NCBI GenBank assembly: GCA_002793515.1
Contig: PFEU01000018.1
Coordinates: 32,203-96,202, forward strand
From: Candidatus Uhrbacteria bacterium CG10_big_fil_rev_8_21_14_0_10_48_16
Lineage (GTDB): Bacteria; Patescibacteriota; Patescibacteriia; UBA9934; GWF2-40-263
Direction: 5' to 3'
DNA: 64,000 nt
Part shown: piece by piece, positions 1,586 to 57,774 of the stretch
Numbering within the stretch: position 1 is the stretch's first letter
Layout of the letters: every line of letters starts with the position of its first letter
Made by a program: the position numbers and the translations under genes
Notes under the pieces: generated by a model
What the model was told of the DNA's origin: nothing
Databases searched by the model: none
Seen by the model: the letters and a program-made list of their open reading frames with translations, nothing else

Positions 1586-1589
1586 ACCG

Positions 1590-7230: not shown

Positions 7231-7235
7231 ATCAG

Positions 7236-7595: not shown

Positions 7596-7598
7596 AAA

Positions 7599-7949
7599 CT
7601 AGACAAGTTCAATCTGAACCATATCAGCCCCATCGTTCTTACGAGGTCCGATGTTGATGATTCTTGTATATCCACCTGGACGATTCTCGTAACGTACAGC
7701 GAGAACATCGAAAATTTTGTTGACAGGATGATCGGTGTAGAAAAAACTAAGAAGCTTTCGTCGAGAAGCAAGTGTCTGTGTTTTTCCAGAAGTGATAGCC
7801 TTTTCCACGAGAGGCTTGACCGCCTTTGCTTTCGCTTGGGTGGTGGTTACCTTTTCATGCAAAATGACACTTGCGGCAAGATTTCTAAGCAAGGCTTCTC
7901 GAGGAGCCTTCTCTCTTCCCAATTTTGTCTCTTTCTTTCGATGACGCAT
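7599..7949 (-). CDS. rplQ: 50S ribosomal protein L17
   Basis: 116 aa, MRHRKK...LGR...RNLA...YTRI L17 signature; directly downstream of rpoA. Confidence 0.9.
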   Translation of the reverse strand: MRHRKKETKLGREKAPREALLRNLAASVILHEKVTTTQAKAKAVKPLVEKAITSGKTQTLASRRKLLSFFYTDHPVNKIFDVLAVRYENRPGGYTRIINIGPRKNDGADMVQIELV

Positions 7950-7955
7950 ATAATT

Positions 7956-8708
7956 CTATTCCTCCGAAATTTCAGCCGTCCCAGCTTCTTCAAATGATTC
8001 AGCAGGTAAAGATGATGCCTGATTATTTGTCAAAATTGAGAAGTAGTCAATAAGAATCTTTGCAGACTCCTCAACTGCTTCCTTTGGAGTAATTGTTCCG
8101 TCTGTCTCTATATTCATGATCAACCGGTCGTAGTTGGTAATTTCACCAACACGTGTATTCTCAACTCGGTAGCCTACATTTCGTACAGGAGAGAACAGCG
8201 CATCGATTGAAATCGTTCCGAGATCTCGATTTTCTTCATTCGCTCGATCCTCACTTGTTGTATATCCACGCCCTCTTCGAACTGTGAGCTCCATCTCTAA
8301 TGAAGCACTATCCTCTGTAATTGTTGCGAGAACGAGGTCTGTATTGATGATTTCAACATCCGCATTTGGGGCAATATCTCCAGCGGTAACAACCTTTGAT
8401 CCGGAAACACTCAACGTAAGCTTTACTGGTTCGTCGGAAAAACATTTAAGACGAAGGGACTTGATATTAAGGATCATCTCGAGAGCATCTTCCTTCACTC
8501 CCTTTACCGCCTGAAACTCGTGGTTAACTCCCTTAATTTTGACAGCTGTGACAGCAGCTCCCGGAAGCGTTGATAAAAGGACACGTCGTAACGCGTTTCC
8601 TAAGGTTGTCCCGTATCCATAAAAACAAGGGTCAATGGTAAGAACGCCCTCATTTGCGCGTTCACCGTCCTCGTATTGAATACGTGATGGAAGAAGAATG
8701 TTCTCCAT
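7956..8708 (-). CDS. rpoA: DNA-directed RNA polymerase alpha subunit (N-terminal domain only, no alpha-CTD)
   Basis: 250 aa matching the alpha-NTD dimerisation/assembly domain; the ORF ends 7 nt before rplQ with no room for a CTD. Confidence 0.85.
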   Translation of the reverse strand: MENILLPSRIQYEDGERANEGVLTIDPCFYGYGTTLGNALRRVLLSTLPGAAVTAVKIKGVNHEFQAVKGVKEDALEMILNIKSLRLKCFSDEPVKLTLSVSGSKVVTAGDIAPNADVEIINTDLVLATITEDSASLEMELTVRRGRGYTTSEDRANEENRDLGTISIDALFSPVRNVGYRVENTRVGEITNYDRLIMNIETDGTITPKEAVEESAKILIDYFSILTNNQASSLPAESFEEAGTAEISEE

Positions 8709-8732
8709 ACTGGAAAGATTTAAAAATGATGA

Positions 8733-9347
8733 TTATCGAGAGTAAAACTCAACGATGAATGTTGGATCAAAACCTTGTTTGAGATCCTCGCCTTCTGGGA
8801 TCGCTGTAATCTTTCCAGTCATGGTCTTCTCATCTCGTGAAATCCAGCTTGGGAGAGTTCCCAGATTCATAGCCTCAGGGATTACTTTGATAATACCCTT
8901 TTCAACCTTTGAAGCCTTCACGGTAATCACATCACCTACGGACACAATAAAGGATGGAATATCAACACGCGCACCATTTACCTGAATAAATCCATGACTA
9001 ACCATCTGACGAGACTGTCGGCGAGTTCTTGCCCAACCGAGTCGGTAAATCACGTTATCAAGTCTGGTTTCAAGAAGTTGAACGAGGTTTTCAGCTGTAT
9101 TGCCTTCTCTTCGTGTTGCTTTCTCGAAATATCCAGCAAATTGCTTCTCCATCACCCCGTAAATCGCCTTCGCTTTCTGCTTTTCTTTTAATTGTTCACC
9201 AAAAGAAGAGAGTCGTGGACGACGACGAGCCTGTTTCGGACCATGTACACCAGGTGGATATGGACGTCGTTTAACGTACTTTTCCTTACCTAAAGTAATG
9301 CCTAATCGGCGAGAGAGTTTTACAATGGGAGTTCGCTTCGTTGCCAT
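8733..9347 (-). CDS. rpsD: 30S ribosomal protein S4
   Basis: 204 aa, LSRRLG...EKQ...YG...S4 domain; operon position between rpsK and rpoA. Confidence 0.9.
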   Translation of the reverse strand: MATKRTPIVKLSRRLGITLGKEKYVKRRPYPPGVHGPKQARRRPRLSSFGEQLKEKQKAKAIYGVMEKQFAGYFEKATRREGNTAENLVQLLETRLDNVIYRLGWARTRRQSRQMVSHGFIQVNGARVDIPSFIVSVGDVITVKASKVEKGIIKVIPEAMNLGTLPSWISRDEKTMTGKITAIPEGEDLKQGFDPTFIVEFYSR

Positions 9348-9350
9348 ATT

Positions 9351-9749
9351 CTAGACGCGACGTGGTTTAGGTTGACGACAGCCGTTATGTGGAAGAGGAG
9401 TGATGTCCTTAATAGCAAGAACCTGAAATCCATTTGCGTTAAGCGCACGGATTGCAGAGTCACGACCTGATCCGACTCCTTTTACAAAGACGTTAAGTTC
9501 TTTCAAACCTGTATCTTTTACCCGTTCAGCAGCATTCTTTACGACAATACTTGCTGCATAGGGAGTAGACTTCTTTGGTCCTTTAAATCCACAGTTTCCT
9601 GCGCTTGACCATCCAAGTGCATTTCCATTCAAGTCCGTAAGGGTCACAATCGTATTGTTATACGTTGACTGAATATAAGCACAGCCCTGTGACACTTGTC
9701 GGGCGACTTTTTTCTTTGCACGTGATTTTGAGTTGCTCTGAACAGCCAT
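9351..9749 (-). CDS. rpsK: 30S ribosomal protein S11
   Basis: C-terminal ...TPLPHNGCRQPKPRRV and GSGRDSAIRAL motifs of S11. Confidence 0.92.
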   Translation of the reverse strand: MAVQSNSKSRAKKKVARQVSQGCAYIQSTYNNTIVTLTDLNGNALGWSSAGNCGFKGPKKSTPYAASIVVKNAAERVKDTGLKELNVFVKGVGSGRDSAIRALNANGFQVLAIKDITPLPHNGCRQPKPRRV

Positions 9750-9754
9750 AAAGT

Positions 9755-10141
9755 TTAGGTCTTTGTAAGAGTTCGACGTCCACTACCAGTTGTTTTACGG
9801 ACATTTCCACGAACCGTTCGTGAATTGGATTTAGTTCGTTGACCTCGAGATGGCAACCCTTTTGTATGTCGAGACCCACGATAAGAAGAAATTTCCTTTA
9901 AGCGCTTAATGCTGGATGTTTTATCTCTACGCAAATCCCCTTCGAGTCGATAATTTTTCTCAAGGATTGTTCGTAGACTGTTTACTTGATCATCTGAAAG
10001 ATCCTTTGTCCGAATCGTTTCATCAATACCGGCTTCTTTGAGAACCTTTTTTGATGTGGTCAGACCGACACCAAAAACATAGGTCAAAGCAATGACGATG
10101 TGTTTATCCATTGGAATGTTGACTCCTGCAATACGTGCCAT
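9755..10141 (-). CDS. rpsM: 30S ribosomal protein S13
   Basis: [10 protein letters not shown]... N-terminus canonical for S13. Confidence 0.92.
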
Positions 10142-10146
10142 ATGTT

Positions 10147-10260
10147 TTACCCTTGTCGTTGTTTATGACGTGGATTTTTACAAATAACAACGACACGGCC
10201 TTCGCGTCGAAGAACTTTGCAATCGCGACAAATTTTCTTTGCTGATGATCGTACTTTCAT
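10147..10260 (-). CDS. rpmJ: 50S ribosomal protein L36
   Basis: Not in the ORF track (under 60 aa). Minus-strand translation gives [37 protein letters not shown], 37 aa with a Zn-ribbon CxxC...C...H; located between infA and rpsM as expected. Confidence 0.85.
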
Positions 10261-10296
10261 AATCATAAACGTCATCGAAACGATCGATGACGTTTG

Positions 10297-10518
10297 CTAA
10301 AATCGATAAACGACACGACCCTTTGTAAGGTCGTATGGACTGATCTCAACCTTCACGTCATCGCCTGGAAGAATTCTGATACGAAACTTTCGCATTTTTC
10401 CAGACAAGTGACCTGTGATGATCTGTCCGTTTTCTAGTTTTATTTTGAACTTTGCGGCAGGTAGAAGCTCTTCTACCGAGCCCCGCATCTCAATGAAATC
10501 TTTTGTCGTCTTTGCCAT
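10297..10518 (-). CDS. infA: translation initiation factor IF-1
   Basis: [15 protein letters not shown]...S1-like IF-1 sequence; the upstream 10 codons of the track ORF are probably not translated. Confidence 0.9.
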
Positions 10519-10673
10519 AGTGAAATAACGACAGAATTCTAGCATCAATTGCCAGAATCGGCAAGAAATAGTGGAGATTTAAGGCGCCGGTATTGTACTG
10601 ATGCGAGCCTTTGTTGTCAAGAATCTCTCCGTGGATAAATAAAAGGACGAAATTCCTTTTAGTTTAGCCAAAT

Positions 10674-12563
10674 TTATTCCAAAACCGCTTTAATTCTTCT
10701 AACCCCACTTGATGCTGATTCTTCTTTTGAAATCTTAAAGTGACCCAAAATACCGGTATGCTCTACATGCGGACCACCACAAACTTCTTTGCTATAAGAA
10801 CCACCCGTTGCTTCATCCCCAATAAAATACACTTTGATCTGATCTCCGAGCTCTGAATATTTATCCTCAAATAACCCGATTGCCCCTCGTTCTTTTGCTT
10901 GTTCAAGCGAAAGCATTTCAAAATGCACTAATAAATCCTTTTCAATTTGCTGATTCACAAGATCTTCAACAGCTTGAATTTGTTCCTGCGTCATCTTCTC
11001 AGCGTGTGAAAAATCAAAACGCAAGCGATCTGAGGTGATGTTTGAACCTTTCTGCTCTACATGCTCCCCTAGTACAGTGCGAAGAGCCTGATGAAGCATA
11101 TGGGTTGCGGTATGAAGTTTTACGGTCGCATCAGAATGATCCGCAAGACCACCAGCAAACTTTTGTGTAGAACCAGACCGAGAGAGGTCTTGATGCTTTC
11201 GAAACTCTTCCATGAAGATCGTTCGATCAACATGCTGACCTTGTTCTTCTGCCATTTCTTCACTCAGCTCTATAGGAAATCCATACGTTGAGTAAAGAAT
11301 AAACGCATCTTCTCCAGAAATCTTTCCTTTTTGTGAGAACATCTTTTCAAATTCACGTTCTCCTTTTAGAAGCGTTTTTGAGAACTTCTCCTCCTCGCGT
11401 GCGAGCTCTTCGAGAATTCGATCTTCTTTTTGCTTCAAATGAACATAATCCTTCTGGTACTCCCTTATATATAAACTCCCTATCTCAGAAACAAAGGCCG
11501 TATCGATCCCGAGTTTTTTTCCAAATCGGACGGCACGCCGAATTAAACGACGAACAAAATATCCTTGATCCTTATTCGAAGGGAAGACATCATCTCCAAT
11601 GAGAAACGTGGCCGCACACACATGATCAAGAATCACTCGCATCGAACGGGTAATCTCAGGACTTGATTCATAGGATGCGGATGAGAGGCTCTCAAGAGCC
11701 TCTTTTGCCGTTTGAAACGCATCGACCGCAAAAATATCTGGATTCCCATTGAGCGCAGCAGCGATACGGATAAGTCCTCCTCCAAAATCAACATTTTTCT
11801 GCGGAAGCCGTTCAAAACCATCTTCTGTCTTCTTATACTCCATGAAAACATTATTCCCGATCTCTAAAAATCTCCCACAGTCACAATTTACATGACAAGG
11901 AAGGTCTTTGAACTCAGAACGTTCATGTATACCTAAATCCATTCCAAAATCCCAAAACATCTCCGAATCAGGACCACCAGGCTCTCCCACAGGCATCTTG
12001 TCTGGAGTTCCGGAACGAGACCACCAATTCTTTGTCTCATCGTAGTAAAAGATTCGTCCGCCCTGCATCCCGTCACGCTCAGAAAAATCCACATCCAATG
12101 CCTCTATTCCCACATCGGAAAAAACCTTTTTCCAAATTCCTACAGCTTCTTCGTCTTTTGAAATCTGTGCATTCCCTCGGAATACAGTCACGTATAAATT
12201 TTGTGGATCTAATCCAATCGTTTGAGTCAAAAACTCAAACATCCATGGAATTTGTTCCTCCTTGAAGTAATCTCCAAGCGACCAATTTCCAAGCATCTCA
12301 AAAAATGTCGTGTGTCGATTATCTCCAACCTCCTCAATATCCTGAGAGCGAAAGCACTTCTGTGAATCGGCAAGTCTCACACCTTGTGGATGTGCTTCAC
12401 CAAGGAGATACGGAACCATTGGTTGCATTCCAGATCCGGTAAAAAGTGTTGTTGGATCATTCTCAGGAAGAAGCGAGGCAGATGGAATCACAACATGCCC
12501 ACGCTCCTCAAAGAATTTCAGGTATTTCGTTCGAATTTCGTGTATCGTCATAGCAGTACGCAT
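10674..12563 (-). CDS. alaS: alanine--tRNA ligase (short form, 629 aa)
   Basis: Class II aaRS N-terminus (FFEERGH...LLPENDPTTLFTGSGM...FRSQDIEEVGDNRHTTFFEMLGNWS) and editing-domain HxxxH (HTATHMLHQALR). Confidence 0.85.
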   Translation of the reverse strand: MRTAMTIHEIRTKYLKFFEERGHVVIPSASLLPENDPTTLFTGSGMQPMVPYLLGEAHPQGVRLADSQKCFRSQDIEEVGDNRHTTFFEMLGNWSLGDYFKEEQIPWMFEFLTQTIGLDPQNLYVTVFRGNAQISKDEEAVGIWKKVFSDVGIEALDVDFSERDGMQGGRIFYYDETKNWWSRSGTPDKMPVGEPGGPDSEMFWDFGMDLGIHERSEFKDLPCHVNCDCGRFLEIGNNVFMEYKKTEDGFERLPQKNVDFGGGLIRIAAALNGNPDIFAVDAFQTAKEALESLSSASYESSPEITRSMRVILDHVCAATFLIGDDVFPSNKDQGYFVRRLIRRAVRFGKKLGIDTAFVSEIGSLYIREYQKDYVHLKQKEDRILEELAREEEKFSKTLLKGEREFEKMFSQKGKISGEDAFILYSTYGFPIELSEEMAEEQGQHVDRTIFMEEFRKHQDLSRSGSTQKFAGGLADHSDATVKLHTATHMLHQALRTVLGEHVEQKGSNITSDRLRFDFSHAEKMTQEQIQAVEDLVNQQIEKDLLVHFEMLSLEQAKERGAIGLFEDKYSELGDQIKVYFIGDEATGGSYSKEVCGGPHVEHTGILGHFKISKEESASSGVRRIKAVLE

Positions 12564-32146: not shown

Positions 32147-32260
32147 AGAGAAAAAATATAACGGCGGTAGTGTATGCGATTGAAGGCTTGATCGCAAGTG
32201 GACAACCATTGACGAAGTTCTCTGTAAATGATCTGATAGCCCCTAACCACGGGAGAAATC

Positions 32261-33550
32261 ATGCCATTGTTCAGCCCGGACAGGTGGGTGTATGACCCAC
32301 GCCATCCAGCGACAGTGCTGGATCAGCTCCCGAGGGAGCTCTTTCCACACACGACCACCGCAGATCTCATCGCACACCTTCGTATGGGCGGTGGAAAGTC
32401 CCTCGGGCTTTCCCTGTGTGAGATTCTGACGCACGGATCGGAACACTTCCGCGTCCCAGACTGGCTCTCGTTGCCTGGAACCTATGCGTGGCACCAGCCA
32501 ATCCCTGCCACAACTCAATGGCTCTCTAGCAGAGAGGGTCAACTCAAGGTCCGTAGCTCGACTCGACGGGAAGACTGGCTCACAGGTCAGAGCGGTGAAC
32601 AACACTCGAGGACCGTGAAGGATCTCACGCGAGCACTCCACCATGCGAGCGAGGTCTCCGGTGGGCAACACCCAGTCGTCCTTCAGGATTTTGTCGAAGG
32701 GATCGGGATCGTCGTCGACCTCGCCTACAGCCAGATCCTGGGACAACCGATTGCTCGGGTCTCGACGGGAAGAGAGTGGAAACGCGATTGTGGAGAGCAA
32801 ATCTTCACGTCCGCCACACGGGATCACGAAGGCAGACACGAGATCATCGACCCAATCAGCGGAACCTATCTTCTGGACCGCACAACGGGACATCTCTTCG
32901 AAGGGTCGTGCCTAAGACTTCCTCTTCAGGAGATCGTTGGCGAACTCTGGGAACGCGTTAACGCATTCGGTATCACCTTCGGGGTGCAGTGCGAAATCGT
33001 GGTTCATCCAGACGCTCCAGAAATCTGGTGGCTTGTCCAAATCCGACCCTCCCCTGATCGAGTCCGATCCCACGGGATCAACCTGGAACCCCTTCCAGGG
33101 GCAATGATCACGACCCCTGCAGTGAGTCGAGCGTTCGACCATCGTGGGCTCGCGACCTGTACCACCCCCGAGTCATACACCTGGTTGTTCAACGCATCAA
33201 CCGGAGGTATCACCGACACCATCGAGAGAGAGGGGTGGGAATTCCGTCCCTCAAACATCCTTATCTGGCACAAAGATCCAATCCCTGACTTCGACTCCTG
33301 GATGCTTGAGATGGCATTCACGGTCGGGGTGAAGGTCCAGATCACGAGACGAGTGATCGTCATCAGTACCACCCATAGTGGAATCAACGCACGCGTCCTC
33401 ATGCCCGAACAAAGCGATGTCACCTCACTCGGAGGAATCATCGCCGTCCCTGACGGGCTCCATGACCAACTCGTGCATGAGCTCCAAGGACAGGACAAGG
33501 TCATTCACGCGATCTCCGACGGTCTCGTCGGACAAGTCGCACTCCTCTAA
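32261..33550 (+). CDS. stand-alone PPDK_N / PEP-utilising enzyme ATP-grasp (nucleotide-binding) domain protein; GC-rich insertion
   Basis: MGGGKSLGLSL...KVRSSTRREDWLTGQSGEQ matches the GGK...VRSSAxxED...AGQ signature of the PEP synthase/PPDK N-terminal domain; no phospho-His or PEP-binding domain; about 61% GC. Confidence 0.55.
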   Translation: MPLFSPDRWVYDPRHPATVLDQLPRELFPHTTTADLIAHLRMGGGKSLGLSLCEILTHGSEHFRVPDWLSLPGTYAWHQPIPATTQWLSSREGQLKVRSSTRREDWLTGQSGEQHSRTVKDLTRALHHASEVSGGQHPVVLQDFVEGIGIVVDLAYSQILGQPIARVSTGREWKRDCGEQIFTSATRDHEGRHEIIDPISGTYLLDRTTGHLFEGSCLRLPLQEIVGELWERVNAFGITFGVQCEIVVHPDAPEIWWLVQIRPSPDRVRSHGINLEPLPGAMITTPAVSRAFDHRGLATCTTPESYTWLFNASTGGITDTIEREGWEFRPSNILIWHKDPIPDFDSWMLEMAFTVGVKVQITRRVIVISTTHSGINARVLMPEQSDVTSLGGIIAVPDGLHDQLVHELQGQDKVIHAISDGLVGQVALL

Positions 33551-43259: not shown

Positions 43260-44576
43260 CTAGCGCAGGATGGGGTGTATGCCGTGGGTGTTCACCGTGC
43301 GTGATACCCAGGTCAGGATCTGTTCGTCATGGACCGTGGTCCACACGACTCCTCCGTCGGAATCCATGTGGAGGTTCCAGGCAAGGGGAACTGCCGTCCC
43401 TCGATGCCCGCGGAAGTGTGGGACGTCGTAGATACCTTCGTGTTGGATGTGGGCTTGGATGCGACCATCGTTGCCGAGAAGGACCTCACGGACCTCCGTT
43501 CCAGCCGTTGGTGTCCAGTCGACGTTTGAGCCGACGAATCGACTCGTCGCGAAGCGTCTGCGAGCAGGATCCTGGATGATTCCTGCGACGACAGACAGTT
43601 CGTCTGGTGACCAAGCGACGGTTGCGGGGTCCAGGGTGAAGGACCCTTCGTGGATGACTTCCCCGGTACTGAGCGTCAGTCGACGCACATCCGGAGATGC
43701 TCCGCGGGGATGCGTGAGCATCAGGAGCGTTCCCCCCTTGGGAGAGGACCACACGCCGTGGAACTCCCCATCGATTGAAATCCGTTCAGGCTCTTCGCCG
43801 AACGCTCGACGGTTGAGCTCGACGAGCCAGGACTGCGTCCCGCGGTTGACCGCGAGCATCAGTCGGCCCTGCCAACGGACGAGCCCTGCTGAACGCTGAG
43901 CGTCCCCAGGGTTGACCTGAAGGAAGGAGGTGGCTCCGTGCTCCGTAGCCTGGTAGGCGTAGAGAAGCCCACCGAATGACTCAAGCACACACAGCGTGTC
44001 TTCTTCGCAGACGCGCACGGTTGCCCAAGCATCGACCGGCCAAAGTCCCCACGAGGTGAGGTACAGCTTCTGACCGGGATGCTGTGCAGACGTTCCGACA
44101 GGAACGCGGTTGGGCCGTGGGCCCACAGCGAATTCCAGTCGATCGAGTCGGTGAAGGAACTGACTTGCGTCTTGCGTGAGACGCCAGACTCCCGGCGGAT
44201 GACCTTCCACCCTTCCCCAGACGAGGAGGTCTTCACTCCCCACCCTGAGGATCCGTGTCCCACTTGCTCCCGGCCCGAAGGGACTAAGGAATGCGGGACC
44301 CACCGGACCGAAGGTGGAGTGATAGACGCGCTCGCCAGCAGGATAGGTGCGAATGACTTGTCCGATGAAGAGACCACAGGAACTTGCAACGAGCTGATCC
44401 CCGGAGATCAGCTGAAGAATTCTCAGCGGGGTAGCGGTCTCTGGGATATCGCCGACGCGGATCATCTCCCCCGTGAAGTCGGGGGTGTTCATCCGTACGA
44501 CGTGACTCCGGGGAGGAATCGTGGATTGATGCACGGGAACCTCCATTCTCAGTGGCACACAAGATCGTGTGGTCAT
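43260..44576 (-). CDS. hypothetical protein, GC-rich insertion (about 62% GC)
   Basis: 438-aa ORF with Trp/Gly-rich repeats suggestive of a beta-rich fold; no motif recognised; followed on its transcript by the hairpin GCGCcGACC-aaaga-GGTCtaGCGC plus U-tract at 43236-43270. Confidence 0.4.
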   Translation of the reverse strand: MTTRSCVPLRMEVPVHQSTIPPRSHVVRMNTPDFTGEMIRVGDIPETATPLRILQLISGDQLVASSCGLFIGQVIRTYPAGERVYHSTFGPVGPAFLSPFGPGASGTRILRVGSEDLLVWGRVEGHPPGVWRLTQDASQFLHRLDRLEFAVGPRPNRVPVGTSAQHPGQKLYLTSWGLWPVDAWATVRVCEEDTLCVLESFGGLLYAYQATEHGATSFLQVNPGDAQRSAGLVRWQGRLMLAVNRGTQSWLVELNRRAFGEEPERISIDGEFHGVWSSPKGGTLLMLTHPRGASPDVRRLTLSTGEVIHEGSFTLDPATVAWSPDELSVVAGIIQDPARRRFATSRFVGSNVDWTPTAGTEVREVLLGNDGRIQAHIQHEGIYDVPHFRGHRGTAVPLAWNLHMDSDGGVVWTTVHDEQILTWVSRTVNTHGIHPILR

Positions 44577-46782: not shown

Positions 46783-47619
46783 ATGGCAAAACTCCTTGAT
46801 GGAAAAGCGCTTGGTCTTCGTATTCGCGAAAAGATCAAGTCCCGTATTGAAACGCTCCCAAGTCAACCTGGCTTAGGAGTGATTTTAGTTGGAAACGATC
46901 CGGCCTCGCACTTGTATGTGAGTCTCAAACAACGTGCATGTGAAGAAGCGGGCATTCATTTTGAAGTCTTCCTCTATCCGTCTAGCACACTTGAAGAAGA
47001 TTTGATTGAAAAAGTTCATGAGCTTAACGCTCGAACAGACATCAACGGTATTTTGGTACAACTCCCCCTTCCTTCGCAAAGCGCAGACCGTGTCATTGCC
47101 GTCATCGATCCTCTCAAAGATGTTGATGGATTTCATCCAAAAAATCTTGAACGTCTACGTCGAGGAGAACCCTGCATCGCTTCCGCTGTTGCCCTCGGTG
47201 TCATGCGTCTTATCCGCGAAGCGGTGGGCGAAGGAGCTCTCCCTCCAAACGCGCTGATTGTTTCCTCTCCTCTTTTTGCCGAGCCCCTCAAACTTCTTCT
47301 TCAAGAGGGAGGCGTTGCGACAGACGTGACCCCAGCCGAAGACTCAGAGCTCGCAAGCAAAACACGATCGGCGGATATTCTGATTGTCGCAGAAGGAATG
47401 CCAAAATTGATTACCGGCGACATGGTTAAACCCGGGGCGATTATGATTGATGTTGGAACCACTCGCATAGATGAAGGTTTGGTTGGAGATATAGACTTTG
47501 ATTCCGTCGAACCCATCGTGAGCGCCATCACTCCTGTCCCTGGAGGCGTTGGTCCCATGACCGTCGCTATGCTCCTCGTGAATATTCTCAAAGCCTACAC
47601 ACTCCAACAACAGGATTGA
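46783..47619 (+). CDS. folD: bifunctional methylenetetrahydrofolate dehydrogenase/cyclohydrolase
   Basis: LLDGKA...GxxSxLYV...FolD N-terminus, Rossmann GRSxxVG-like motif. Confidence 0.88.
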   Translation: MAKLLDGKALGLRIREKIKSRIETLPSQPGLGVILVGNDPASHLYVSLKQRACEEAGIHFEVFLYPSSTLEEDLIEKVHELNARTDINGILVQLPLPSQSADRVIAVIDPLKDVDGFHPKNLERLRRGEPCIASAVALGVMRLIREAVGEGALPPNALIVSSPLFAEPLKLLLQEGGVATDVTPAEDSELASKTRSADILIVAEGMPKLITGDMVKPGAIMIDVGTTRIDEGLVGDIDFDSVEPIVSAITPVPGGVGPMTVAMLLVNILKAYTLQQQD

Positions 47620-47684
47620 CGACTTAGTGTTTTCTGTGTAGGTTTGCTTGTTCGTGAGACTCCCTCGCGACCTGACCAACCCCC

Positions 47685-48038
47685 ATGGAGGACACCGTGC
47701 TCATTCTTCACTCTCCTGGTAAGGCACAGCGCCGATTCCGGACGACCATTCTCGATGGCGATCGCTCGCTCGGGCTCTTCTTGAAGGAAGAGGGACGTCT
47801 CCAGGGCTTCCTGGAGATCAACGCTTCCACTCCCGTGAGCGCCCTCGCCCATCTGGTGCGACGGTGGGCAAAGGCCCATGACATCAGTCGGTGGTTCACC
47901 ACCAAGATGATCACCATGGTCGAGGAGGAATTCGAGACGCTGACCGAACTCCAGAAGCACGGCCCCGACATCAGCCTCGGCTGGTTCGGAAGCGACACCG
48001 ATCGCAGGCCCCCCGAGATCTACGAGACCATCCACTAG
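47685..48038 (+). CDS. small hypothetical protein, GC-rich insertion
   Basis: 117 aa, about 62% GC; followed by two hairpin terminators. Confidence 0.35.
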   Translation: MEDTVLILHSPGKAQRRFRTTILDGDRSLGLFLKEEGRLQGFLEINASTPVSALAHLVRRWAKAHDISRWFTTKMITMVEEEFETLTELQKHGPDISLGWFGSDTDRRPPEIYETIH

Positions 48039-48123
48039 CGACCACGTCGCTCCACGCATACCGACGAACCACTCGTCGGCTCTCCCCCCACCTTCTCGGT
48101 GGGTTTTACTTTATTTGCGAATC

Positions 48124-51294: not shown

Positions 51295-51606
51295 ATGTTC
51301 AACAAACTCAAACACATCAAGGATCTAAAAAAACAGGGAAAGGTCATGCAGAATGAGCTTGCCAGTGTCGTGCATGAAGGATCTTCCGCGCATGGAAAGG
51401 TAAAAATAGTCGTGAACGGAAATCGAGACCTTGTGGAAGTCACTATTGATCCAGAATTTCTCTCTGACGCAAAGAAGCTCGAAGAAGCGATTAAGAGCGC
51501 CTGGAAAGATGCAACAGGGATGAAGTTTCAAATGAAGCTCGCAAAGAAAATGCAGGATATGGGCGGACTCGACATGCTAAAAAACCTAGGGGGAGGTGGA
51601 GAATAG
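51295..51606 (+). CDS. ybaB: nucleoid-associated protein YbaB/EbfC
   Basis: 103 aa, GKVKIVVNGNRDLVEVTIDPEFL signature. Confidence 0.85.
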   Translation: MFNKLKHIKDLKKQGKVMQNELASVVHEGSSAHGKVKIVVNGNRDLVEVTIDPEFLSDAKKLEEAIKSAWKDATGMKFQMKLAKKMQDMGGLDMLKNLGGGGE

Positions 51607-52213
51607 ACCTGTGCGTCGGTTCCCTGAACCTATTTCAAATCTTGTCGCGGCGTTTGCGCGACTTCCTGGCGTAGGGCCAAAGACGGCCCTACGTTATGTT
51701 TTTTATCTTCTTCAACAACCAAAATTCGATCTCGACGTGATGGCACGCGCACTCACACAACTCGGAGAGCGCATTCAAACCTGCTCCCGATGTTACACCT
51801 ACACAGAAAGCGAAACGTGTGAGATTTGTTTGGATCCAAAGCGTGATCCCTCTCTCTTGTGTGTCGTCGAAGAAGCACGCGACATCTCCACGATCGAAGC
51901 GACTGGAATGTATTCTGGGTTCTATCATGTCCTCGGGGGAACCCTGAATCCCATCGAAGGCATGACGCCCGACACCATCCGCTTGCGCCAGCTTAAGGCT
52001 CGATTAGAGACGAGTCCGGACGTAAAGGAAATCATCCTCGCCCTCTCTCCCACCGCACACGGAGAAGCCACCATCATGTTCATCCAAAAACAACTTGCCT
52101 CCCCTGGTCGCACCATGACGCGCCTCGCCCGAGGACTCCCACTCGGTGCCACCCTCGAATTCGCCGATGAAGTAACCCTCACTGACGCGCTCAAAGGAAG
52201 AAAGAAACTTTAA
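51596..52213 (+). CDS. recR: recombination protein RecR
   Basis: HhH LPGVGPKTA, C4 Zn finger CSRC...CEIC, Toprim. Confidence 0.9.
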   Translation: MENRPVRRFPEPISNLVAAFARLPGVGPKTALRYVFYLLQQPKFDLDVMARALTQLGERIQTCSRCYTYTESETCEICLDPKRDPSLLCVVEEARDISTIEATGMYSGFYHVLGGTLNPIEGMTPDTIRLRQLKARLETSPDVKEIILALSPTAHGEATIMFIQKQLASPGRTMTRLARGLPLGATLEFADEVTLTDALKGRKKL

Positions 52214-52299
52214 TTCTGGTCGATGGTGACAACGAGAGTGTTGCCTAAAATAAAACGCACGCTGTTCGTGTTTCGACGAGGCGTGCGCCGTGGGTGGAC

Positions 52300-52665
52300 T
52301 CAGAGATGCGATGCGGGTGTGCTGTTCTCCTTCTCGAAAGTTGTGGGGACGTACCCCACCAGGATCATGCCCTCCGAGCACGTGAGAATATGCTCCTCAT
52401 GCGGGGAAAACATGAACATGACAGGAGCCTGGAGCTCACGCTCCTGAACACCGTCGACCTGTGTCCAGGTTCGAACCCGGCACCGCCCCTGGATGAGGAA
52501 GAACCCTTCCGCATGGGGATGGGAGTGGTTGCCCAGTTGCACTCCATCCTTCTGTGTGATGAGTACTTTCCCCTCCACCGTGTGCGGAAAATCCGCAGAA
52601 GGACGGAACGCTGTCAGCGTCCGCCTCTCGTCCGTATGACTGTCTGCCACAGGGAATATCTCCAT
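52300..52665 (-). CDS. cupin-domain protein, GC-rich (about 60%)
   Basis: Cupin motifs G(x)5HxH...E and P-G-x-x-H-x-H-x-N (HSHPHAEGFFLIQGRCRV; FMFSPHEEH); strong SD AAGGAAGGAA before the ATG. Confidence 0.55.
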   Translation of the reverse strand: MEIFPVADSHTDERRTLTAFRPSADFPHTVEGKVLITQKDGVQLGNHSHPHAEGFFLIQGRCRVRTWTQVDGVQERELQAPVMFMFSPHEEHILTCSEGMILVGYVPTTFEKENSTPASHL

Positions 52666-52973
52666 GTCGTTCCTTCCTTATTTTAGTTTTTTGACTAAAT
52701 TCAACGTACAACAATTAGGCCCGTATGTCAATCGAACGAGAGGAAAGACTGATTTAAAATAACCCATAATATAAGGAGAAAGCGATATGTTCTGTGCCTT
52801 CCATCTAAATTCTGTACTGGAAACTGCAAGCCTGAGGCGGTAACATAGATTTGTTGTGATGTGAAACTAATGCTCCAAACCTTCACGCCTTTCAATTGTT
52901 TTTTGCACAACAAAGGGATACACGGTTTGGGTCTCAGTTCAGGTCTCACCCCTCCGTAAACCATTCGAGATTC

Positions 52974-53010
52974 ACTGCAAACGACATTAGACAATTATCG
53001 CGCGTTAAGC
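52974..53010 (+). repeat. partial attC-like site 0 (ACTGCAAACGACATTAGAC...GTTAAGC) upstream of the first cassette ORF
   Basis: Shares the ACTGCA...(A/G)(A/C)(C/T)(G/A)TTAG(A/C)(C/T) pattern with sites A-C; GTTAAGC fits GTTRRRY. Confidence 0.25.
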
Positions 53011-53042
53011 GAAACAAGTGTGAACATCATATAATTCGATCT

Positions 53043-53822
53043 ATGTTTGGATTACTACGTTTTGAATATTACCTAGCAGGCAGACAGCTATGGTTTAGTA
53101 AAGCTGGACACTTATACTCTCCAAAACTAATGCTTGGCTATGCAATTGAGACAAGTCTTAAACATGGCCTTTTAATTATTGAGGATGCAGGAGTCAGCTT
53201 GGACCAAGATGCAAAAAGTATCCGAGGTAAAAGTCATGATTTAAAAGAGCTACTAAGCACATGTGTTAGATATAATCTCTTCTCAACAATAGATACTTCG
53301 GACGACTTTTTGGACTTTGCTACCAAAGGACTCAACAGCCGATATCCAAAACATATACGAGATAATTTTGATGAAGCTAGCAACAGAGATCCTTATTTAC
53401 TCACAATTAATGTTGGAGAAACTATAGGATACTATGATGATTTAATGCTCAAACTTGATGATGAAATCTGGTCTATAACAAATAAACCAGAATTTTCTGT
53501 TGGATTTCGTGGATCATCACAGGCAAGTTCAGCCACAGGGAAAATATTTTTTCATTGTAACCTTCCTGCAATGCAGAGACTTAAAAAGTACCATGCAACC
53601 GTATCAGAACATAGATCTCATCACGTTAGTGATATTGAATCACTGAATAAGGGGGAGGAATTTTTGTGGAAATATGAAGACCGGTCAACGATAAGTAAAT
53701 CTACTTCTTATGACTCATCAACATTCAAATATAAAAGTGTTGAAGAGACAGAGATTACACTTCACGATGGAACTAAAATTATTGATTATGGTCCGCAACT
53801 AAAAATGTGGTTTCACATTTAA
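53043..53822 (+). CDS. cassette ORF A: hypothetical protein (AT-rich island)
   Basis: 259 aa from MFGLLRFEYYLAG...; the track ORF begins at 52896 but would cross attC-like site 0; no SD; about 35% GC. Confidence 0.4.
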   Translation: MFGLLRFEYYLAGRQLWFSKAGHLYSPKLMLGYAIETSLKHGLLIIEDAGVSLDQDAKSIRGKSHDLKELLSTCVRYNLFSTIDTSDDFLDFATKGLNSRYPKHIRDNFDEASNRDPYLLTINVGETIGYYDDLMLKLDDEIWSITNKPEFSVGFRGSSQASSATGKIFFHCNLPAMQRLKKYHATVSEHRSHHVSDIESLNKGEEFLWKYEDRSTISKSTSYDSSTFKYKSVEETEITLHDGTKIIDYGPQLKMWFHI

Positions 53823-53826
53823 CTAC

Positions 53827-53883
53827 GCCTAACACTGCATATCCAAAATACTAGCTACTTCGGATCATGCAGAAACGTTAGAT
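53827..53883 (+). repeat. attC-like site A (57 bp): GCCTAAC-ACTGCATATCC...GGATcATGCAG-aaac-GTTAGAT
   Basis: The ends match the integron attC core consensus (RYYYAAC and GTTRRRY) exactly; the internal imperfect palindrome CTGCAT-ATCC / GGAT-c-ATGCAG carries one unpaired base. Confidence 0.5.
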
Positions 53884-53915
53884 ACCATACACCTTACCAA
53901 TTAAAGAAGAAAAAC

Positions 53916-54410
53916 ATGCAGGATTTACTCGAACAAATAGAAAAAGGGCTTGAGGCTAATCTTTATTACTTATCACTTTTTGTAGCCTTGGCTATTCCAG
54001 ATATATGTGGAGCAATTGACGCATCGGATGGCGAAGCTTCAAAAGCAAAATATATAAAATGGTTCGATGAACACTTACAAACCAAATATAGCACTTCGTT
54101 TAATGGTGAACTTTGCTATTATTTTAGGTGCTCGCTTCTTCATCAAGGTTCATCTCAACATTCGAAAAGTAGATACAAACGAATAATGTTCATTGAACCA
54201 GACAGAAGCATAAGAATTCATCGAAGTATTATGAATGATGCTTACTTCATAGACGTAAAAGACTTTTGTAATGATATGGTCGAAGCCTGCAAAGGATGGC
54301 TGCAAAAAGTGGAAACGACACCTTTATTCCAAACAAATTCTATTAAATTTATAATGCGTTATCCTCAAGGCCTCAAACCTTATGTTAGCGGAGTTCCAGT
54401 AATCGGCTGA
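53916..54410 (+). CDS. cassette ORF B: HEPN-like protein (Rx4H motif)
   Basis: 164 aa; N-terminal helix LYYLSLFVALAIPDICGAI and ...YYFRCSLLHQGS containing R-x4-H as in HEPN RNase domains; motif-level only. Confidence 0.4.
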   Translation: MQDLLEQIEKGLEANLYYLSLFVALAIPDICGAIDASDGEASKAKYIKWFDEHLQTKYSTSFNGELCYYFRCSLLHQGSSQHSKSRYKRIMFIEPDRSIRIHRSIMNDAYFIDVKDFCNDMVEACKGWLQKVETTPLFQTNSIKFIMRYPQGLKPYVSGVPVIG

Positions 54411-54416
54411 CACAGC

Positions 54417-54503
54417 ACTTAACACTGCATAAACGGTTACGCTTCATTTCTTTCCGCTTCGCCCATATTGATTCGCAACATCAGATATACGCAGACGTTA
54501 GCT
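54417..54503 (+). repeat. attC-like site B (87 bp): ACTTAAC-ACTGCATAAACG...ATATACGCAGAC-GTTAGCT
   Basis: The 5' end matches RYYYAAC; the 3' GTTAGCT is one mismatch from GTTRRRY; imperfect palindrome CTGCATA / TACGCAG with an extra G. Confidence 0.45.
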
Positions 54504-54608
54504 AAACTATCTCTTTTCTTTTTTAAACCATCCCTCCTTCACTAAGACTATAACAAACAAATACCAAATTATTTAAAAACTTAGTGAACGTCTTTTTTTA
54601 TCAATAAT

Positions 54609-54991
54609 ATGATGAAAGTAGAGTTTAAAAAATCTAAATTGCATGGCATTGGTATTTTCGCCATGGCTGATATTCAAGCTGATGAAATTATTGAAATCTG
54701 TCCAATAATAATGTTGAATGCAAAAGATACAAACGAGATCGATAAAACACATTTGTATGATTATTATTTCAGTTGGAGAGAACAAGGTTCTGCAATTTCT
54801 TTAGGATATGCTCACTCTATAATCATTCTTACGAACCCAATGCTAAATACGATAAAGATTTTGTAAACAATCGGATTGTTTTTACATCAGTTAAAACAGT
54901 TAAAAAGGGCGAAGAAATTACTGTGAATTACAATGGAGATCCTGATAAGAAAGAAAAGGTTTGGTTTGAAAAATCAGAATTGAATAGCTAA
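54609..54991 (+). pseudogene. cassette ORF C: SET-domain lysine methyltransferase interrupted by a +/-1 frameshift near 54808-54815
   Basis: Frame 1 gives the N-SET part (KSKLHGIGIFAMADIQADEIIEICPIIML...); the downstream frame gives LYNHSYEPNAKYDKDFVNNRIVFTSVKTVKKGEEITVNY, the NHSCxPN/ELxxxY SET core. The two halves overlap in DNA at ...ggatatgctcactctataatcat..., consistent with a single-base indel. Confidence 0.6.
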
Positions 54992-55053
54992 AGTGAACTC
55001 CAAGCTTGCTCCGTTTCACTCTGCAAAACACCGCAAATACTGAAATGTTAGCT
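54986..55053 (+). repeat. attC-like site C (68 bp): AGCTAAAG...CTGCAAAACACCGCAAATACTGAAAT-GTTAGCT
   Basis: The 3' end GAAATGTTAGCT is nearly identical to sites A (GAAACGTTAGAT) and B (AGACGTTAGCT); the 5' AGCTAAA pairs with the 3' TTAGCT. Confidence 0.4.
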
Positions 55054-55311
55054 GAAATATGTATACCCTAGAATTATCAAACCCTATGAAGTTTGAGATA
55101 ATTTATCTAAACGAGTAAACACACATCACATCATATAAGACACATAAAAAACTTCCGATGTTGGTTATGTTTTGTATAAGAAAAGCCCCGAGTGAAGTCG
55201 AGCAGTGGCTCTTCTCCACGCGGGGCGCGTGTCATCACACCGGTTCGACCTAGCTCATGCGTCCACTAGACGATGACTCCTCGGTCGAGTTGGTGTGGGG
55301 ATGTGGGTTGT

Positions 55312-55899
55312 CTACCCGTTGGCGTCCGCCTTGCTGGGAGCGTCGTGCTCGGCGAGGACGTCGTCCCAGGTGCTGAGGAAGATCTCGCCCATGTCGGGTC
55401 GGTAGATCAGGGCGTGCGTGGTCCAGAACTCGAGCGAGTCCTGGCGCTCGTTGGTATCGGGCTTGGTGTTGCACGGCTCGTTGGGAGCGATCACGCCCGG
55501 GTAGCAGGTGACGAGCATGAACTCATCAAGGAAGACCTTCTTGCCATCCTCCCACTTGAACTTCGGCTGAACGACGACGACCAAGGTCGAGACGTCCGGG
55601 ATGCTGTTCGTCGGGAGGAGGAGGACTCGACTGGGGCCCTTGCGCGGGCCCCGACGGACGAACTGGAGCTCCTCGTTGGTGTGAGAAGCGAGGGTGGTGA
55701 CCAGCGTCGCCGGAGCGATCGACCGGCCCATCTGGACCTCGAAGGCCTTCTTGTCCGTCACGTTGGTCAGGTCGAGTCCCCCGATGCATCCCTCGAAGAG
55801 GACGACCAGGTTCTCGTCTCGTGCCCAGTACTCCTGGGCGTTGGGGTAGGGAAAGACGGATGAACCGTCACGGGTCGTGTAAACGTCACCGAGAGGCAT
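55312..55899 (-). CDS. hypothetical protein, GC-rich insertion (about 62% GC)
   Basis: Likely start is MPLGDVYTT preceded by the SD GGAGGG; the track start at 55971 overlaps a terminator hairpin; followed on its transcript by the hairpin CGCGCCCCG...CGGGGC plus U-tract near 55200-55250. Confidence 0.35.
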   Translation of the reverse strand: MPLGDVYTTRDGSSVFPYPNAQEYWARDENLVVLFEGCIGGLDLTNVTDKKAFEVQMGRSIAPATLVTTLASHTNEELQFVRRGPRKGPSRVLLLPTNSIPDVSTLVVVVQPKFKWEDGKKVFLDEFMLVTCYPGVIAPNEPCNTKPDTNERQDSLEFWTTHALIYRPDMGEIFLSTWDDVLAEHDAPSKADANG

Positions 55900-55950
55900 G
55901 AAGCCCTCCTGTCCTCGACCAGGGATTGGCGAGAGACAAACCAAGGTATC

Positions 55951-55990
55951 AAAAAACAGGCCCTTTGTCAATGCATAGGCCTGTTTTCTT
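55951..55990. terminator. bidirectional terminator ACAGGCC-(15 nt loop)-GGCCTGTTTTCTTT
   Basis: 7-bp GC-rich stem with T-tracts on both strands, downstream of the ABC exporter. Confidence 0.5.
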
Positions 55991-55995
55991 TCCTT

Positions 55996-57774
55996 TTACT
56001 CCAGGAATCCGCCGGCTTGGATCTCCCACAACTTCTTGTAGATATTGGTCTTCTTTTTAAGAAGTTGATCGTGTGTGCCGGAATCAACAACTTGACCTTC
56101 ATCGATCACGAGAATGCGATCCATCTTCATGATGGTCGACAGACGATGCGCAATGACAATGGTGGTTTTTCCTTTCATCAGCTCCTCAAGCGCTTGCTGG
56201 ATCAGCAACTCAGATTCTGAATCAAGACTGGAGGTAGCCTCATCAAGGACAAGAATTGGTGCGTTCTTGAGAATGGCTCGAGCAATGGCAATCCGCTGAC
56301 GCTCTCCCCCCGACAACTTTACCCCACGCTCTCCCACGAAGGTTTCATAGCCTTGGGAAAGACTCTCAATAAACTCATGAGCGTGTGCCTTTTTCGCGGA
56401 TTCAATCACCTCTTCATCTGTCGCGTCTCTTCGTCCGTACCGAATATTTTCCATCACAGTTCGATGGAACAAGATCGGTTCCTGAGGAACAAGAGCAAGA
56501 TTTTCACGCAGACTCTCCTGCGTGACCTTTGCGATGTTTTGGTTCCCGATGAGGATCTTTCCTCTCTCCACATCATAGAAGCGGAACAGAAGTTTTGTGA
56601 TGGTCGACTTCCCCGCCCCAGAAGGACCCACCAACGCGATTTTTTCTCCTGACTCAATAACAAGATTCATGTCACGAAGAATACGCCGAGTCTTATTGAA
56701 GCTAAAAAAGACATTCTGAAACTCAATCCTTCCTGTTTGAACTTGAAGTTCTTTCGCTGTTCGCGCATCTTTAATCTCGATAGGCATCTGAAGAATCTCC
56801 ACCATCTCATCTGCATCCGCCAGTGCGGTAAACACACGACGAACCGCACGACCAAAGTCCCAAATCTTCATGAAAATTCCAATGAGATATCCTTGAATCA
56901 ATGCAAAGTCTCCAATGGTGAGCACGCCTTGTTGCCAAAGTTTCACCGCGTAATACATGATGATAAACTCAATGGCAAACATGAACGCGGATTGAAATGC
57001 TTCAAGAATCTCGGCAAGATTCCACGTGAACGTATTGGATCTTCGAAGTCGCTCCGTGACCTCTTTGTACAATGTTTTCTCGAAGCCTTTTCCCGTAAAC
57101 AACTTAACCGTCACGGCATTGGTAATAGAATCTGCAGCGATTCCTGTTGCTTCGGAATCAATCGCGGCGCGTCTGAAATCATACTTAAGCTTCCATCGTG
57201 CATAGAGAATATTAAACACCATGAACGACACGACCCACACAAGAAGAATCAGGGCCAAGAAGGTACTGCGCGTTGCCAGCACAATCAAATTCCCCGTAAG
57301 AACGATGGTCAGAGGAATAAAGTGATACTGAATCTGATCGGCTACATCCTCAAACGATCGCGAGAGTCGACTCACTTTTCTCACCAATGACCCAGCGAAA
57401 TTGTTAGAAAAGAATTTGTACGAATGTTCATGCAGATGTGCCAACGAGGTCTGTTCTAGATCTGCCATCATGCGTGGCTGAAACCAGTTACTGATCAGAT
57501 TTGATACACGCCACATCACCCACATTCCCCCATGTATGACCGCCACAATAATCAATGTCCCTACAAGAAGCGATGGAAGCTGATCTGGATCAGCAGGAAG
57601 ATCACCGGAGAGCAGATCGAAAAATCGCTTGTAGAACAGTGGAGCGATCACGTCGAGAATATTTGAAATCCCAATCAAGAAGAGAATCAAAAAGAGACGT
57701 CCTTTATATCGACGCGCATGTTCCCAATACACTTTGAGAATTTGACGTGTTTGAATTTTTTCTGTGTTTTTCAT
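55996..57774 (-). CDS. ABC transporter permease/ATPase fusion (MsbA/exporter type)
   Basis: 6 TM N-domain; Walker A GPSGAGKST, signature LSGGERQR, Walker B ILVLDEATS. Confidence 0.85.
   Translation of the reverse strand: MKNTEKIQTRQILKVYWEHARRYKGRLFLILFLIGISNILDVIAPLFYKRFFDLLSGDLPADPDQLPSLLVGTLIIVAVIHGGMWVMWRVSNLISNWFQPRMMADLEQTSLAHLHEHSYKFFSNNFAGSLVRKVSRLSRSFEDVADQIQYHFIPLTIVLTGNLIVLATRSTFLALILLVWVVSFMVFNILYARWKLKYDFRRAAIDSEATGIAADSITNAVTVKLFTGKGFEKTLYKEVTERLRRSNTFTWNLAEILEAFQSAFMFAIEFIIMYYAVKLWQQGVLTIGDFALIQGYLIGIFMKIWDFGRAVRRVFTALADADEMVEILQMPIEIKDARTAKELQVQTGRIEFQNVFFSFNKTRRILRDMNLVIESGEKIALVGPSGAGKSTITKLLFRFYDVERGKILIGNQNIAKVTQESLRENLALVPQEPILFHRTVMENIRYGRRDATDEEVIESAKKAHAHEFIESLSQGYETFVGERGVKLSGGERQRIAIARAILKNAPILVLDEATSSLDSESELLIQQALEELMKGKTTIVIAHRLSTIMKMDRILVIDEGQVVDSGTHDQLLKKKTNIYKKLWEIQAGGFLE

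Follow-up and report, generated by a model that had tools for sequence, protein, structure and literature searches.

The DNA between recR and the gene of an ABC exporter in Candidatus Uhrbacteria bacterium CG10_big_fil_rev_8_21_14_0_10_48_16 changes sharply in G+C content several times within 3.78 kb, which raises the question of what kind of genetic element occupies this interval. The host is a tiny groundwater bacterium of the candidate phyla radiation (CPR; Patescibacteria). Its assignment to Candidatus Uhrbacteria follows from the relatives of its RecR, and a protein identical to one of this stretch is annotated in Candidatus Uhrbacteria bacterium CG10_big_fil_rev_8_21_14_0_10. The analysis covered a stretch of 64,000 nucleotides (positions 32,203 to 96,202 of contig PFEU01000018.1), referred to here as the window, in which all coordinates are given unless another locus is named; loci used for comparison are designated by L and a number. 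The best explanation of the whole locus, to which we assign a probability of roughly 0.75, is that the AT-rich middle of the interval is a small, decaying array of three integron-type cassettes located inside an insertion hot spot flanked by core genes. Such an array resembles a CALIN, i.e. attC sites that occur clustered but without an integron integrase (Cury et al. 2016, PMC4889954).

The AT-rich island and its attC-like sites

The initial annotation described four compositional blocks with G+C contents of about 46, 60, 35, and 62%, and this description holds: in sliding windows over the 64 kb and in the exact segments the corresponding values are 0.475, 0.577, 0.354, and 0.628. The first is the mean of the 500-nt windows outside the region (standard deviation 0.040), and relative to the rest of the window the other three deviate by z-scores of +2.5 (a cupin-like open reading frame, or ORF, at 52300-52665 on the minus strand), -3.0 (the AT-rich island, 52737-55169), and +3.8 (55202-55905, the block of a minus-strand gene named here GC196). 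All 10 of the 500-nt windows with the lowest G+C content in the 64 kb are found in the island, and no window elsewhere falls below 0.39. The tetranucleotide distance from the remaining window, the second compositional check that had been proposed, reaches its maximum (z 3-4.7) over the span 52751-55250. The island includes the following features.

52737-53003, no strand: proximal AT-rich part, non-coding; the homology to the relative L084 ends at 52736 (blastn, alignment)
53004-53010, plus strand: GTTAAGC, possible R'-type core at the left end of cassette 1, 33 nt upstream of ORF1
53043-53822, plus strand: ORF of cassette 1 (ORF1), 259 amino acids, G+C content 0.36, called as 259 amino acids in all independent assemblies
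53827-53883, plus strand: attC1, imperfect hairpin of 57 nt, R'' GCCTAAC and R' GTTAGAT
53916-54410, plus strand: ORF of cassette 2 (ORF2), 164 amino acids, HEPN-like candidate RNase, member of a cross-phylum cassette gene family
54417-54503, plus strand: attC2, 87 nt, R'' ACTTAAC (perfect) and R' GTTAGCT (6/7)
54609-54991, plus strand: cassette 3, SET-domain methyltransferase pseudogene in two frames (54609-54866 and 54773-54991)
54993-55053, plus strand: attC3-like remnant, R' GTTAGCT (6/7) at 55047-55053 and a poor R'' AGTGAAC; pattern match at 55039-55051
55054-55169, no strand: distal AT-rich tail of the island, containing GACACATAAAAAACT at 55139-55153

The three ORFs have the same orientation, and 2-7 nt past each stop codon there is a site that starts near an R'' core (consensus RYYYAAC) and ends in GTTAG(A/C)T. 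This plus-strand segment had been taken for cassettes in the initial annotation, an idea borne out by these sites and by the presence of ORF2 homologues in attC arrays, which are described below. The only well-formed attC of the three is attC1, in which both cores fit RYYYAAC and GTTRRRY exactly, the spacers are 1 and 4 nt long, and the bottom strand folds as DNA with -10.1 kcal/mol (z -5.1), a stability reached by none of 200 shuffled sequences. attC2 keeps the cores and the L boxes (CTGC/GCAG) with a decayed central stem, and it can be aligned with an attC site at 10098-10196 of L089, a locus that also carries an ORF2 homologue. Two sequences are common to attC1 and attC2 and absent elsewhere in the window, namely TAACACTGCAT, found at 53830 and 54420, respectively, and GCAGA(A)ACGTTAG. 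The 5' signature CTAACAC(T/A)G(C/T)(A/G)TAT was detected at four sites, belonging to this organism and to that of the loci L089-L095, and in none of the other loci. At the left end of cassette 1, the GTTAAGC at 53004-53010 has no matching R'' core or hairpin (the fold of 52930-53030 is unstructured, z +1.5), and no convincing ORF or attC was found in 52737-53003.

These sites were called on the basis of motifs and folding, not with IntegronFinder. A detector that combined AAC...GTT ends with constrained folding was discarded: with 31 and 41 "sites" on the two strands it was far too permissive, and it missed attC1. A covariance model, R1, was built exclusively from 13 unrelated canonical GC-rich attC sites, with a structure supplied by hand and verified by pair counts. 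In the alignment of these sites 81% of the cells are paired, and the covariation score was reached by none of 500 shuffles. The structure proposed by RNAalifold for the same alignment missed the L-box helix and was dropped.

ORF1 has no match in Pfam, NCBIfam, PADLOC, or PHROGs, and no homologue in the related Uhrbacteria loci. A 1-nt frameshift near 54800-54815, which all assemblies share, divides the SET gene of cassette 3; positions 1-43 of the Pfam SET profile match in one frame and positions 63-105 in the other. Since both halves exceed the Pfam cut-off (23.8 and 37.0 bits versus 22.4) in different frames, the gene is a pseudogene.

The strongest evidence for cassettes comes from ORF2. 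Its family has more than 200 members at 45-85% identity, which are distributed among Acidobacteriota, Aminicenantes, Desulfosporosinus, and CPR bacteria. A metagenome scan for ORF2 relatives yielded 359 stretches confirmed by tblastn, of which 80 loci were kept, and in many of these a GTTAGGC or GTTAGAC is located 30-40 nt before the ATG and a canonical attC follows directly after the stop codon. L167 includes six attC sites in 5.4 kb and L174 includes three. When the window is compared with L089/L095 (85% amino acid identity) and L096 (77%), the homology starts exactly at the G/TT of the core (GTTAGAT, GTTAAGT, and GTTATGT in the window, L089/L095, and L096, respectively) and the upstream DNA is unrelated. 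A boundary at this point is the footprint to be expected from site-specific cassette movement.

The organism represented by L089-L095 is probably another CPR lineage, because its folD is 54% identical as compared to 56-73% among the related loci. In L089 (7351-8495; also in L090-L093 and L095) a small cupin gene in divergent orientation again directly precedes the ORF2 cassette (85% identical), here next to folD. A conserved unit composed of a cupin gene plus an array, common to the window and L089, was considered and rejected as a coincidence, the two cupins having no detectable sequence similarity (E 22). The L089 array runs on for about 6 kb with AT-rich genes (YgjV, methyltransferase, PPDK-like) and further attC-like sites, and the 15-mer GACACATAAAAAACT of the window (55139-55153) is found identically at L089 14206-14220, in both loci at the distal end of the array and just before a terminator. 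This sequence may be common to both arrays by chance or as a shared end element. In L094, from an Acidobacteriota genome (JBFLYD010000048.1), positions 78-3914 comprise a series of genes in one orientation, the ORF2 homologue together with MjaV-like, mCpol, and MazE/PIN genes; the homologue is followed by an attC at 1459-1525, and this is a cassette context rich in defense and toxin genes.

Proteins of the HEPN superfamily have a four-helix core and a conserved Rx4-6H motif. The description of ORF2 as a HEPN-like candidate RNase is tentative, and PADLOC and NCBIfam returned nothing for ORF1, ORF2, GC196, or the GC-rich ORFans.

No tyrosine recombinase was identified in Pfam scans of 40 ORFs of the window, which included all those of recombinase-like size and several smaller ones, nor does one appear among the precomputed Pfam calls, which take in the genes from about 42 to 64 kb. 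A regular expression for box II of tyrosine recombinases had no match in 174 loci; the pattern was possibly too strict, and this result is not counted as evidence. A complete integron consists of intI, attI, and the promoter Pc, and here the gene divergent from the array is the cupin-like ORF instead of intI. CALINs are recognized by at least two attC sites less than 4 kb apart with no integron integrase nearby, an arrangement found here with attC1, attC2, and the attC3 remnant. The lack of an integrase in the 64 kb thus makes the element CALIN-like rather than a complete integron.

Several observations weigh against this interpretation of the island. The sites attC2 (z 0.14) and attC3 (z 0.39) are no more stable than shuffled sequences. 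Model R1 ranks attC1, on the plus strand, as the best site on either strand of the window, yet its score of 10.3 bits (E 3.2) is not significant. The sole bulged base of attC1 is carried by the 3' arm when the site is read on the ORF strand, opposite to canonical attC sites; those beside ORF2 homologues in L126, L131, L140, and L167 have two or three single-nucleotide bulges on the 5' arm, which corresponds to the 3' arm of the bottom strand that is recombined. The atypical polarity of attC1 is found again in L098 (1226-1291) and L089 (13415-13508), and these sites may be products of decay or members of a distinct structural subclass. Both ends of the island (52737-53003 and 55054-55169) fit no cassette model, and no clean junction between an attC and the genome can be demonstrated. 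The search for intI, which found none, was confined to the 64 kb. Finally, the ORF2 family is also present in phages, so being a cassette is not its sole way of moving.

Several of these points (a significant fold in one of three sites, the covariance score, the bulge polarity, the missing integrase, and the phage homologues) favor the idea of a generic acquired islet, such as a phage or plasmid fragment, with ordinary hairpins that resemble attC sites by coincidence. We consider this unlikely. Consensus R'' and R' cores would have to occur by chance at exactly the expected positions past each stop codon, and the boundary of cassette homology would have to fall at G/TT in three independent contexts. 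Furthermore, ORF2 homologues are located within unmistakable attC arrays whose structure is supported by covariation, the island has no phage or plasmid hallmark genes, and its hairpins lack T-tracts.

The GC-rich genes on either side of the island

The initial annotation also proposed that the two GC-rich minus-strand ORFs next to the island might extend the cassette array. These genes and their terminators are the following.

52246-52289, minus strand: intrinsic terminator serving the cupin-like gene, with a CGCACGC/GCGTGCG stem and after it a minus-strand T-run
52300-52665, minus strand: cupin-like ORF, 121 amino acids, G+C content 0.577, G+C content at third codon positions (GC3) 0.69, weak Cupin_2 and ectoine-synthase matches
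55170-55215, minus strand: GC196 terminator (hairpin at about 55176-55215), fold -18.1 kcal/mol, z -2.3, found in the terminator scan
55312-55902, minus strand: GC196, 196 amino acids, uncharacterized family, G+C content 0.63, GC3 0.87, in a fixed position beside the ABC gene

A comparison with the metagenomic relative L084, whose flanks are 93-94% identical to the window at the nucleotide level, is informative in this regard. Where the window has three cassettes, the middle of the L084 slot has a single AT-rich NUDIX gene. The homology (blastn) stops at 52736 and starts again at 55906, a point 4 nt upstream of the ATG of GC196. Beside recR, L084 has a cupin-like copy with 94% amino acid identity at the same position, and beside the ABC gene a 203-amino acid homologue of GC196 with 36% identity. 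In addition, 32 nt of the GC196 terminator (55170-55201) are 100% identical in both loci despite the different genes adjacent to them. Between its conserved anchors the slot thus has two modules, the AT-rich middle and the GC196 allele, each of which varies independently of the other.

No attC-like sites flank the cupin-like ORF or GC196. Each gene has its own Shine-Dalgarno (SD) sequence and terminator and keeps its position in loci without cassettes; they are therefore resident genes and not cassettes, and the proposed extension of the array did not survive. There is, moreover, no other cassette array in the window to be extended, the two copies of TAACACTGCAT in attC1 and attC2 being the only ones. 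That SD sequences and hairpin/T-tract terminators accompany both GC-rich ORFs had been read correctly: the former are visible in the sequence and the latter were found in the folds. The SD sequence before the cupin-like ATG is AAGGAAGG, and the DNA fold of 52215-52300, which includes the terminator, has -12.6 kcal/mol (z -1.7).

It is quite improbable, then, that the whole 3.8 kb, including both GC-rich ORFs, is a single cassette array of mixed origin and orientation. The idea derives some appeal from the location of these ORFs directly beside the cassettes, from the mobility of the cupin family, which is GC-rich in unrelated contexts among CPR genomes, and from the fact that inverted cassettes carrying their own promoters are known in integrons. 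It is at odds with the absence of R''/R' cores and attC-like hairpins at either ORF, with their ordinary intrinsic terminators, and with the conservation of their positions in L084, and of GC196 also in L015, where there are no cassettes. Besides, the homology to L084 breaks inside the slot and not at the outer borders of the GC-rich genes.

The name cupin-like is tentative because the scores are below the gathering thresholds (Cupin_2, 20.6 bits versus 27.2; Ectoine_synth, 20.7 versus 27). Homologues with 61-71% identity are found in other CPR genomes and in other contexts, where they are also GC-rich; that of L088 has a GC3 of 0.80 in a locus of 37% G+C. In L088 (Candidatus Magasanikbacteria, JBAYIZ010000003.1), positions 5245-12366 include this homologue among DUF3800, GDSL lipase, TspO, NYN, DUF2779, RhuM, and SocA_Panacea genes, and the locus looks like a mobile or defense island in another CPR genome.

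GC196 starts at the ATG at 55902 (196 amino acids), which is preceded by the SD sequence GGAGG, and not at the TTG at 55971; the public annotation gives it 195 amino acids. Its coding strand is the minus strand, as the sense translation shares 46% identity (E 1e-48) with the L015 homologue compared to 31% (E 3e-8) for the antisense translation, and the GC3 of 0.87 is that of the sense frame. Several public gene calls include a 196-amino acid plus-strand ORF (55273-55863) that overlaps GC196, which is an antisense artifact as judged by conservation and GC3. The G+C contents at first and second codon positions resemble those of the backbone. GC3 is 0.80 in the L015 allele, which is located beside the ABC gene in a locus without cassettes, and 0.52 in the L084 allele, a spread that points to alleles of different provenance. 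GC196 is a hypervariable allele whose position by the ABC gene is fixed, and its relationship to the L084 counterpart suggests the replacement of a segment of the size of the coding sequence (CDS), with one break point at the SD/ATG and the other within the terminator. The best structural match of GC196 is an uncharacterized Cryptosporidium protein (2pd0).

The G+C contents of the cupin-like and GC196 blocks are matched by patches at 5.7-6.8, 32.2-33.5, 43.3-44.6, and 47.6-48.1 kb, so the GC-rich blocks are less exceptional than the AT-rich island. These patches (5737-6753, 32243-33550, 43260-44576, and 47685-48038) have G+C contents of 0.57-0.63 in a genome of 0.47, and their ORFs had no match in a Pfam scan. 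The 438-amino acid ORF at 43260-44576 and the 117-amino acid ORF at 47685-48038 have syntenic homologues that are 3-14 G+C points above their own backbones in every relative examined. Their high G+C content is thus inherited and not a mark of recent import, and a high G+C content by itself is no reliable sign of recent foreign origin in this genome. The public gene calls include a 154-amino acid minus-strand ORF (47595-48059) that overlaps the conserved 117-amino acid plus-strand gene and that, by conservation and GC3, is another antisense artifact.

The recR-ABC exporter interval as an insertion hot spot

The borders of the interval are defined by three features.

51596-52213, plus strand: recR, conserved left flank, with Pfam RecR domains in the precomputed gene calls
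55953-55987, no strand: bidirectional terminator hairpin of the ABC gene, an inverted repeat (AAAACAGGCC/GGCCTGTTTT)
55996-57774, minus strand: ABC exporter, conserved right flank, with Pfam ABC_membrane and ABC_tran in the gene calls

The gene order aa-permease-dnaB-ybaB-recR-[gap]-ABC exporter-rplU-DUF192-MraY-like-ClpB is kept in about 30 Uhrbacteria loci, in which recR is 61-86% identical and syntenic; the ABC exporter is 56-90% identical and syntenic in the relatives. Nine loci have a gap of 12-64 nt between recR and the ABC exporter, 13 loci one of 0.13-0.87 kb, and seven loci one of 1.5-4.6 kb; at least 15 unrelated gene families occur in the filled gaps. The empty gaps of L003, L005, L007, L011, L013, L014, L016, and L029 include one bidirectional terminator and nothing more, and the hairpin at 55953-55987 is its counterpart in the window. 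Neither a tRNA gene, an Rfam element, nor a recombinase was found at the slot borders by tRNA, Rfam, and Pfam scans, and the Rfam and tRNA scans of the whole 64-kb window were also negative. An insertion hot spot is defined by flanks that are conserved around a slot that some genomes leave empty and others fill with unrelated genes, and all of this is seen here. With gaps of 12 nt to 4.6 kb and at least 15 unrelated families, the interval is a true hot spot, as had been proposed. The comparison from recR to rplU across the clade, which would have spoken against the proposal had the whole gene order been conserved, showed that the order of the flanks is conserved and the arrangement within the slot is not.

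This variability makes it very improbable that the arrangement is ancestral and vertically inherited with a composition that reflects gene-specific constraints only. Such an explanation is already refuted for the AT-rich island, as ORF1, ORF2, and the SET gene are missing from all 30 related loci, the closest relatives of ORF2 are found in other lineages and phyla, and the contents of the slot differ between genomes with 94% identical flanks. It is partly true for the GC-rich genes, given that GC196 and the cupin-like gene are positionally conserved in some relatives and that other GC-rich ORFs of the window have both their synteny and their GC enrichment in every relative.

The junctions, for which read support had been asked in order to exclude a misassembly, are reproduced in independent assemblies. 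Five contigs, which come from four ENA assemblies and one JGI assembly and are named in the MEGAHIT and SPAdes styles, span the region 51500-56500 at 100% identity, and further partial contigs, including those from Logan and other JGI assemblies, also match at 100%. Some contigs from other samples end near the slot borders (L001 at 52237, L067 at 55208, L072/L075 at 55236, and L073 at 55266), and L065 and L066 end at 54824 and 54814, respectively, near the SET frameshift. All these breaks may be due to strain variants that co-exist or to poor coverage of the AT-rich DNA. The chance that a chimeric assembly of DNA from different organisms generated the mosaic is practically negligible in spite of the sharp G+C steps and of those short contigs that stop near the junctions (52237, 55208, 55236, and 55266), as every junction is covered by the five independent contigs, from different samples and assemblers, with no mismatches over 5 kb, which excludes a chimera as far as assemblies can show, and the relative L084 has both flanks and the same architecture.

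Origin of the island and comparison with known systems

Taken together with the CALIN-like array, these results suggest a model in which two convergent core genes, recR and that of the ABC exporter, enclose a slot for gene turnover in Candidatus Uhrbacteria, with a single bidirectional terminator as its ancestral or minimal state. Insertions in this slot would disturb no operon, and its conserved flanks would allow exchange through homologous recombination. In this genome the slot is composed of three layers: the cupin-like gene beside recR, resident in this sub-lineage; the 2.4-kb AT-rich block with three integron-type cassettes; and GC196, one allele of a hypervariable family that is always located beside the ABC gene. 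Recombination probably exchanges the GC196 alleles, the break points being the SD/ATG and the terminator. The cassettes presumably originated in an integron of a different host whose cassettes are AT-rich. They could have arrived by integrase-mediated insertion outside an integron, between an attC and a genomic GWT site, or as one block through homologous recombination in the flanks, and they would now be decaying for want of an integrase. Outside integrons, small CALINs and cassettes that stand alone are known, and it has been proposed that they arise when an integrase inserts them at GWT sites of the genome (Loot et al., bioRxiv 10.1101/2022.09.11.507474; Ghaly et al.).

The locus can be considered an assembly-validated case of a reduced CPR genome that takes up cassettes shared with Acidobacteriota, Firmicutes, other CPR bacteria, and phages, and that parks them where two core genes converge, in a neutral slot. 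It is also a warning for the detection of horizontal gene transfer (HGT) by composition: the AT-rich block is foreign, and the equally striking GC-rich genes are positionally stable. A role of the slot as a defense or toxin islet would be plausible, and PADLOC found nothing. A broader joint reading, which we regard as rather unlikely, would be that CPR bacteria (Uhrbacteria and the lineage of L089-L095) draw on the global cassette pool by means of a distinct attC subclass (CTAACACTG..TAT, 1/4-nt spacer, bulge on the opposite arm), with an unrecognized integrase or the opposite strand polarity, and that the slot is a miniature defense or toxin islet (the HEPN-like ORF2 and a BECR-like hypervariable GC196) in a symbiont genome of about 1 Mb. 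If the atypical attC polarity were functional, it would bear on how integrases choose the strand that is recombined.

In the literature on integrons in CPR/Patescibacteria we found resistome surveys only and no specific description. Among known systems, CALINs and small groups of cassettes inserted into a genome (the SALIN/attG route; Loot et al., bioRxiv 10.1101/2022.09.11.507474) are similar to the island in having two or three ORFs that lack promoters and point the same way, with an imperfect attC-type palindrome (RYYYAAC/GTTRRRY cores) after each ORF and with neither intI nearby nor transposon flanks. The small size of the island and its signs of decay fit these classes, and one of its cassettes belongs to a gene family of canonical arrays in many phyla. 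The island differs in its host, a CPR bacterium and thus of a group that the RefSeq surveys consulted do not cover, in that two of its three attC sites are degenerate and attC1 has its bulge on the non-canonical arm, and in the location of the array within a multi-layer hot spot, between two resident variable genes. For ORF2, the nearest known systems would be RNase toxins with a HEPN domain and abortive-infection proteins. With respect to the RelE/ParE/CdiA-CT RNase toxins of the BECR fold, GC196 differs by being twice the size of RelE-type proteins and by having neither a sequence-family match nor a partner gene.

Chromosomal hot spots of HGT between conserved core genes are a concept from comparative genomics. 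The slot described here resembles them in its conserved flanks (recR and the ABC exporter), its empty state, and its unrelated accessory genes. In contrast to them, it is very small (up to 4.6 kb), is located between convergent 3' ends, has no tRNA gene, integrase, or repeat at its borders, and nests the position-fixed hypervariable gene GC196. The locus is thus a fairly ordinary hot spot with a CALIN-like cassette cluster inside, both of known kinds; what goes beyond the ordinary is the CPR host, the atypical polarity of the attC sites, and the CDS-sized swapping of GC196 alleles.

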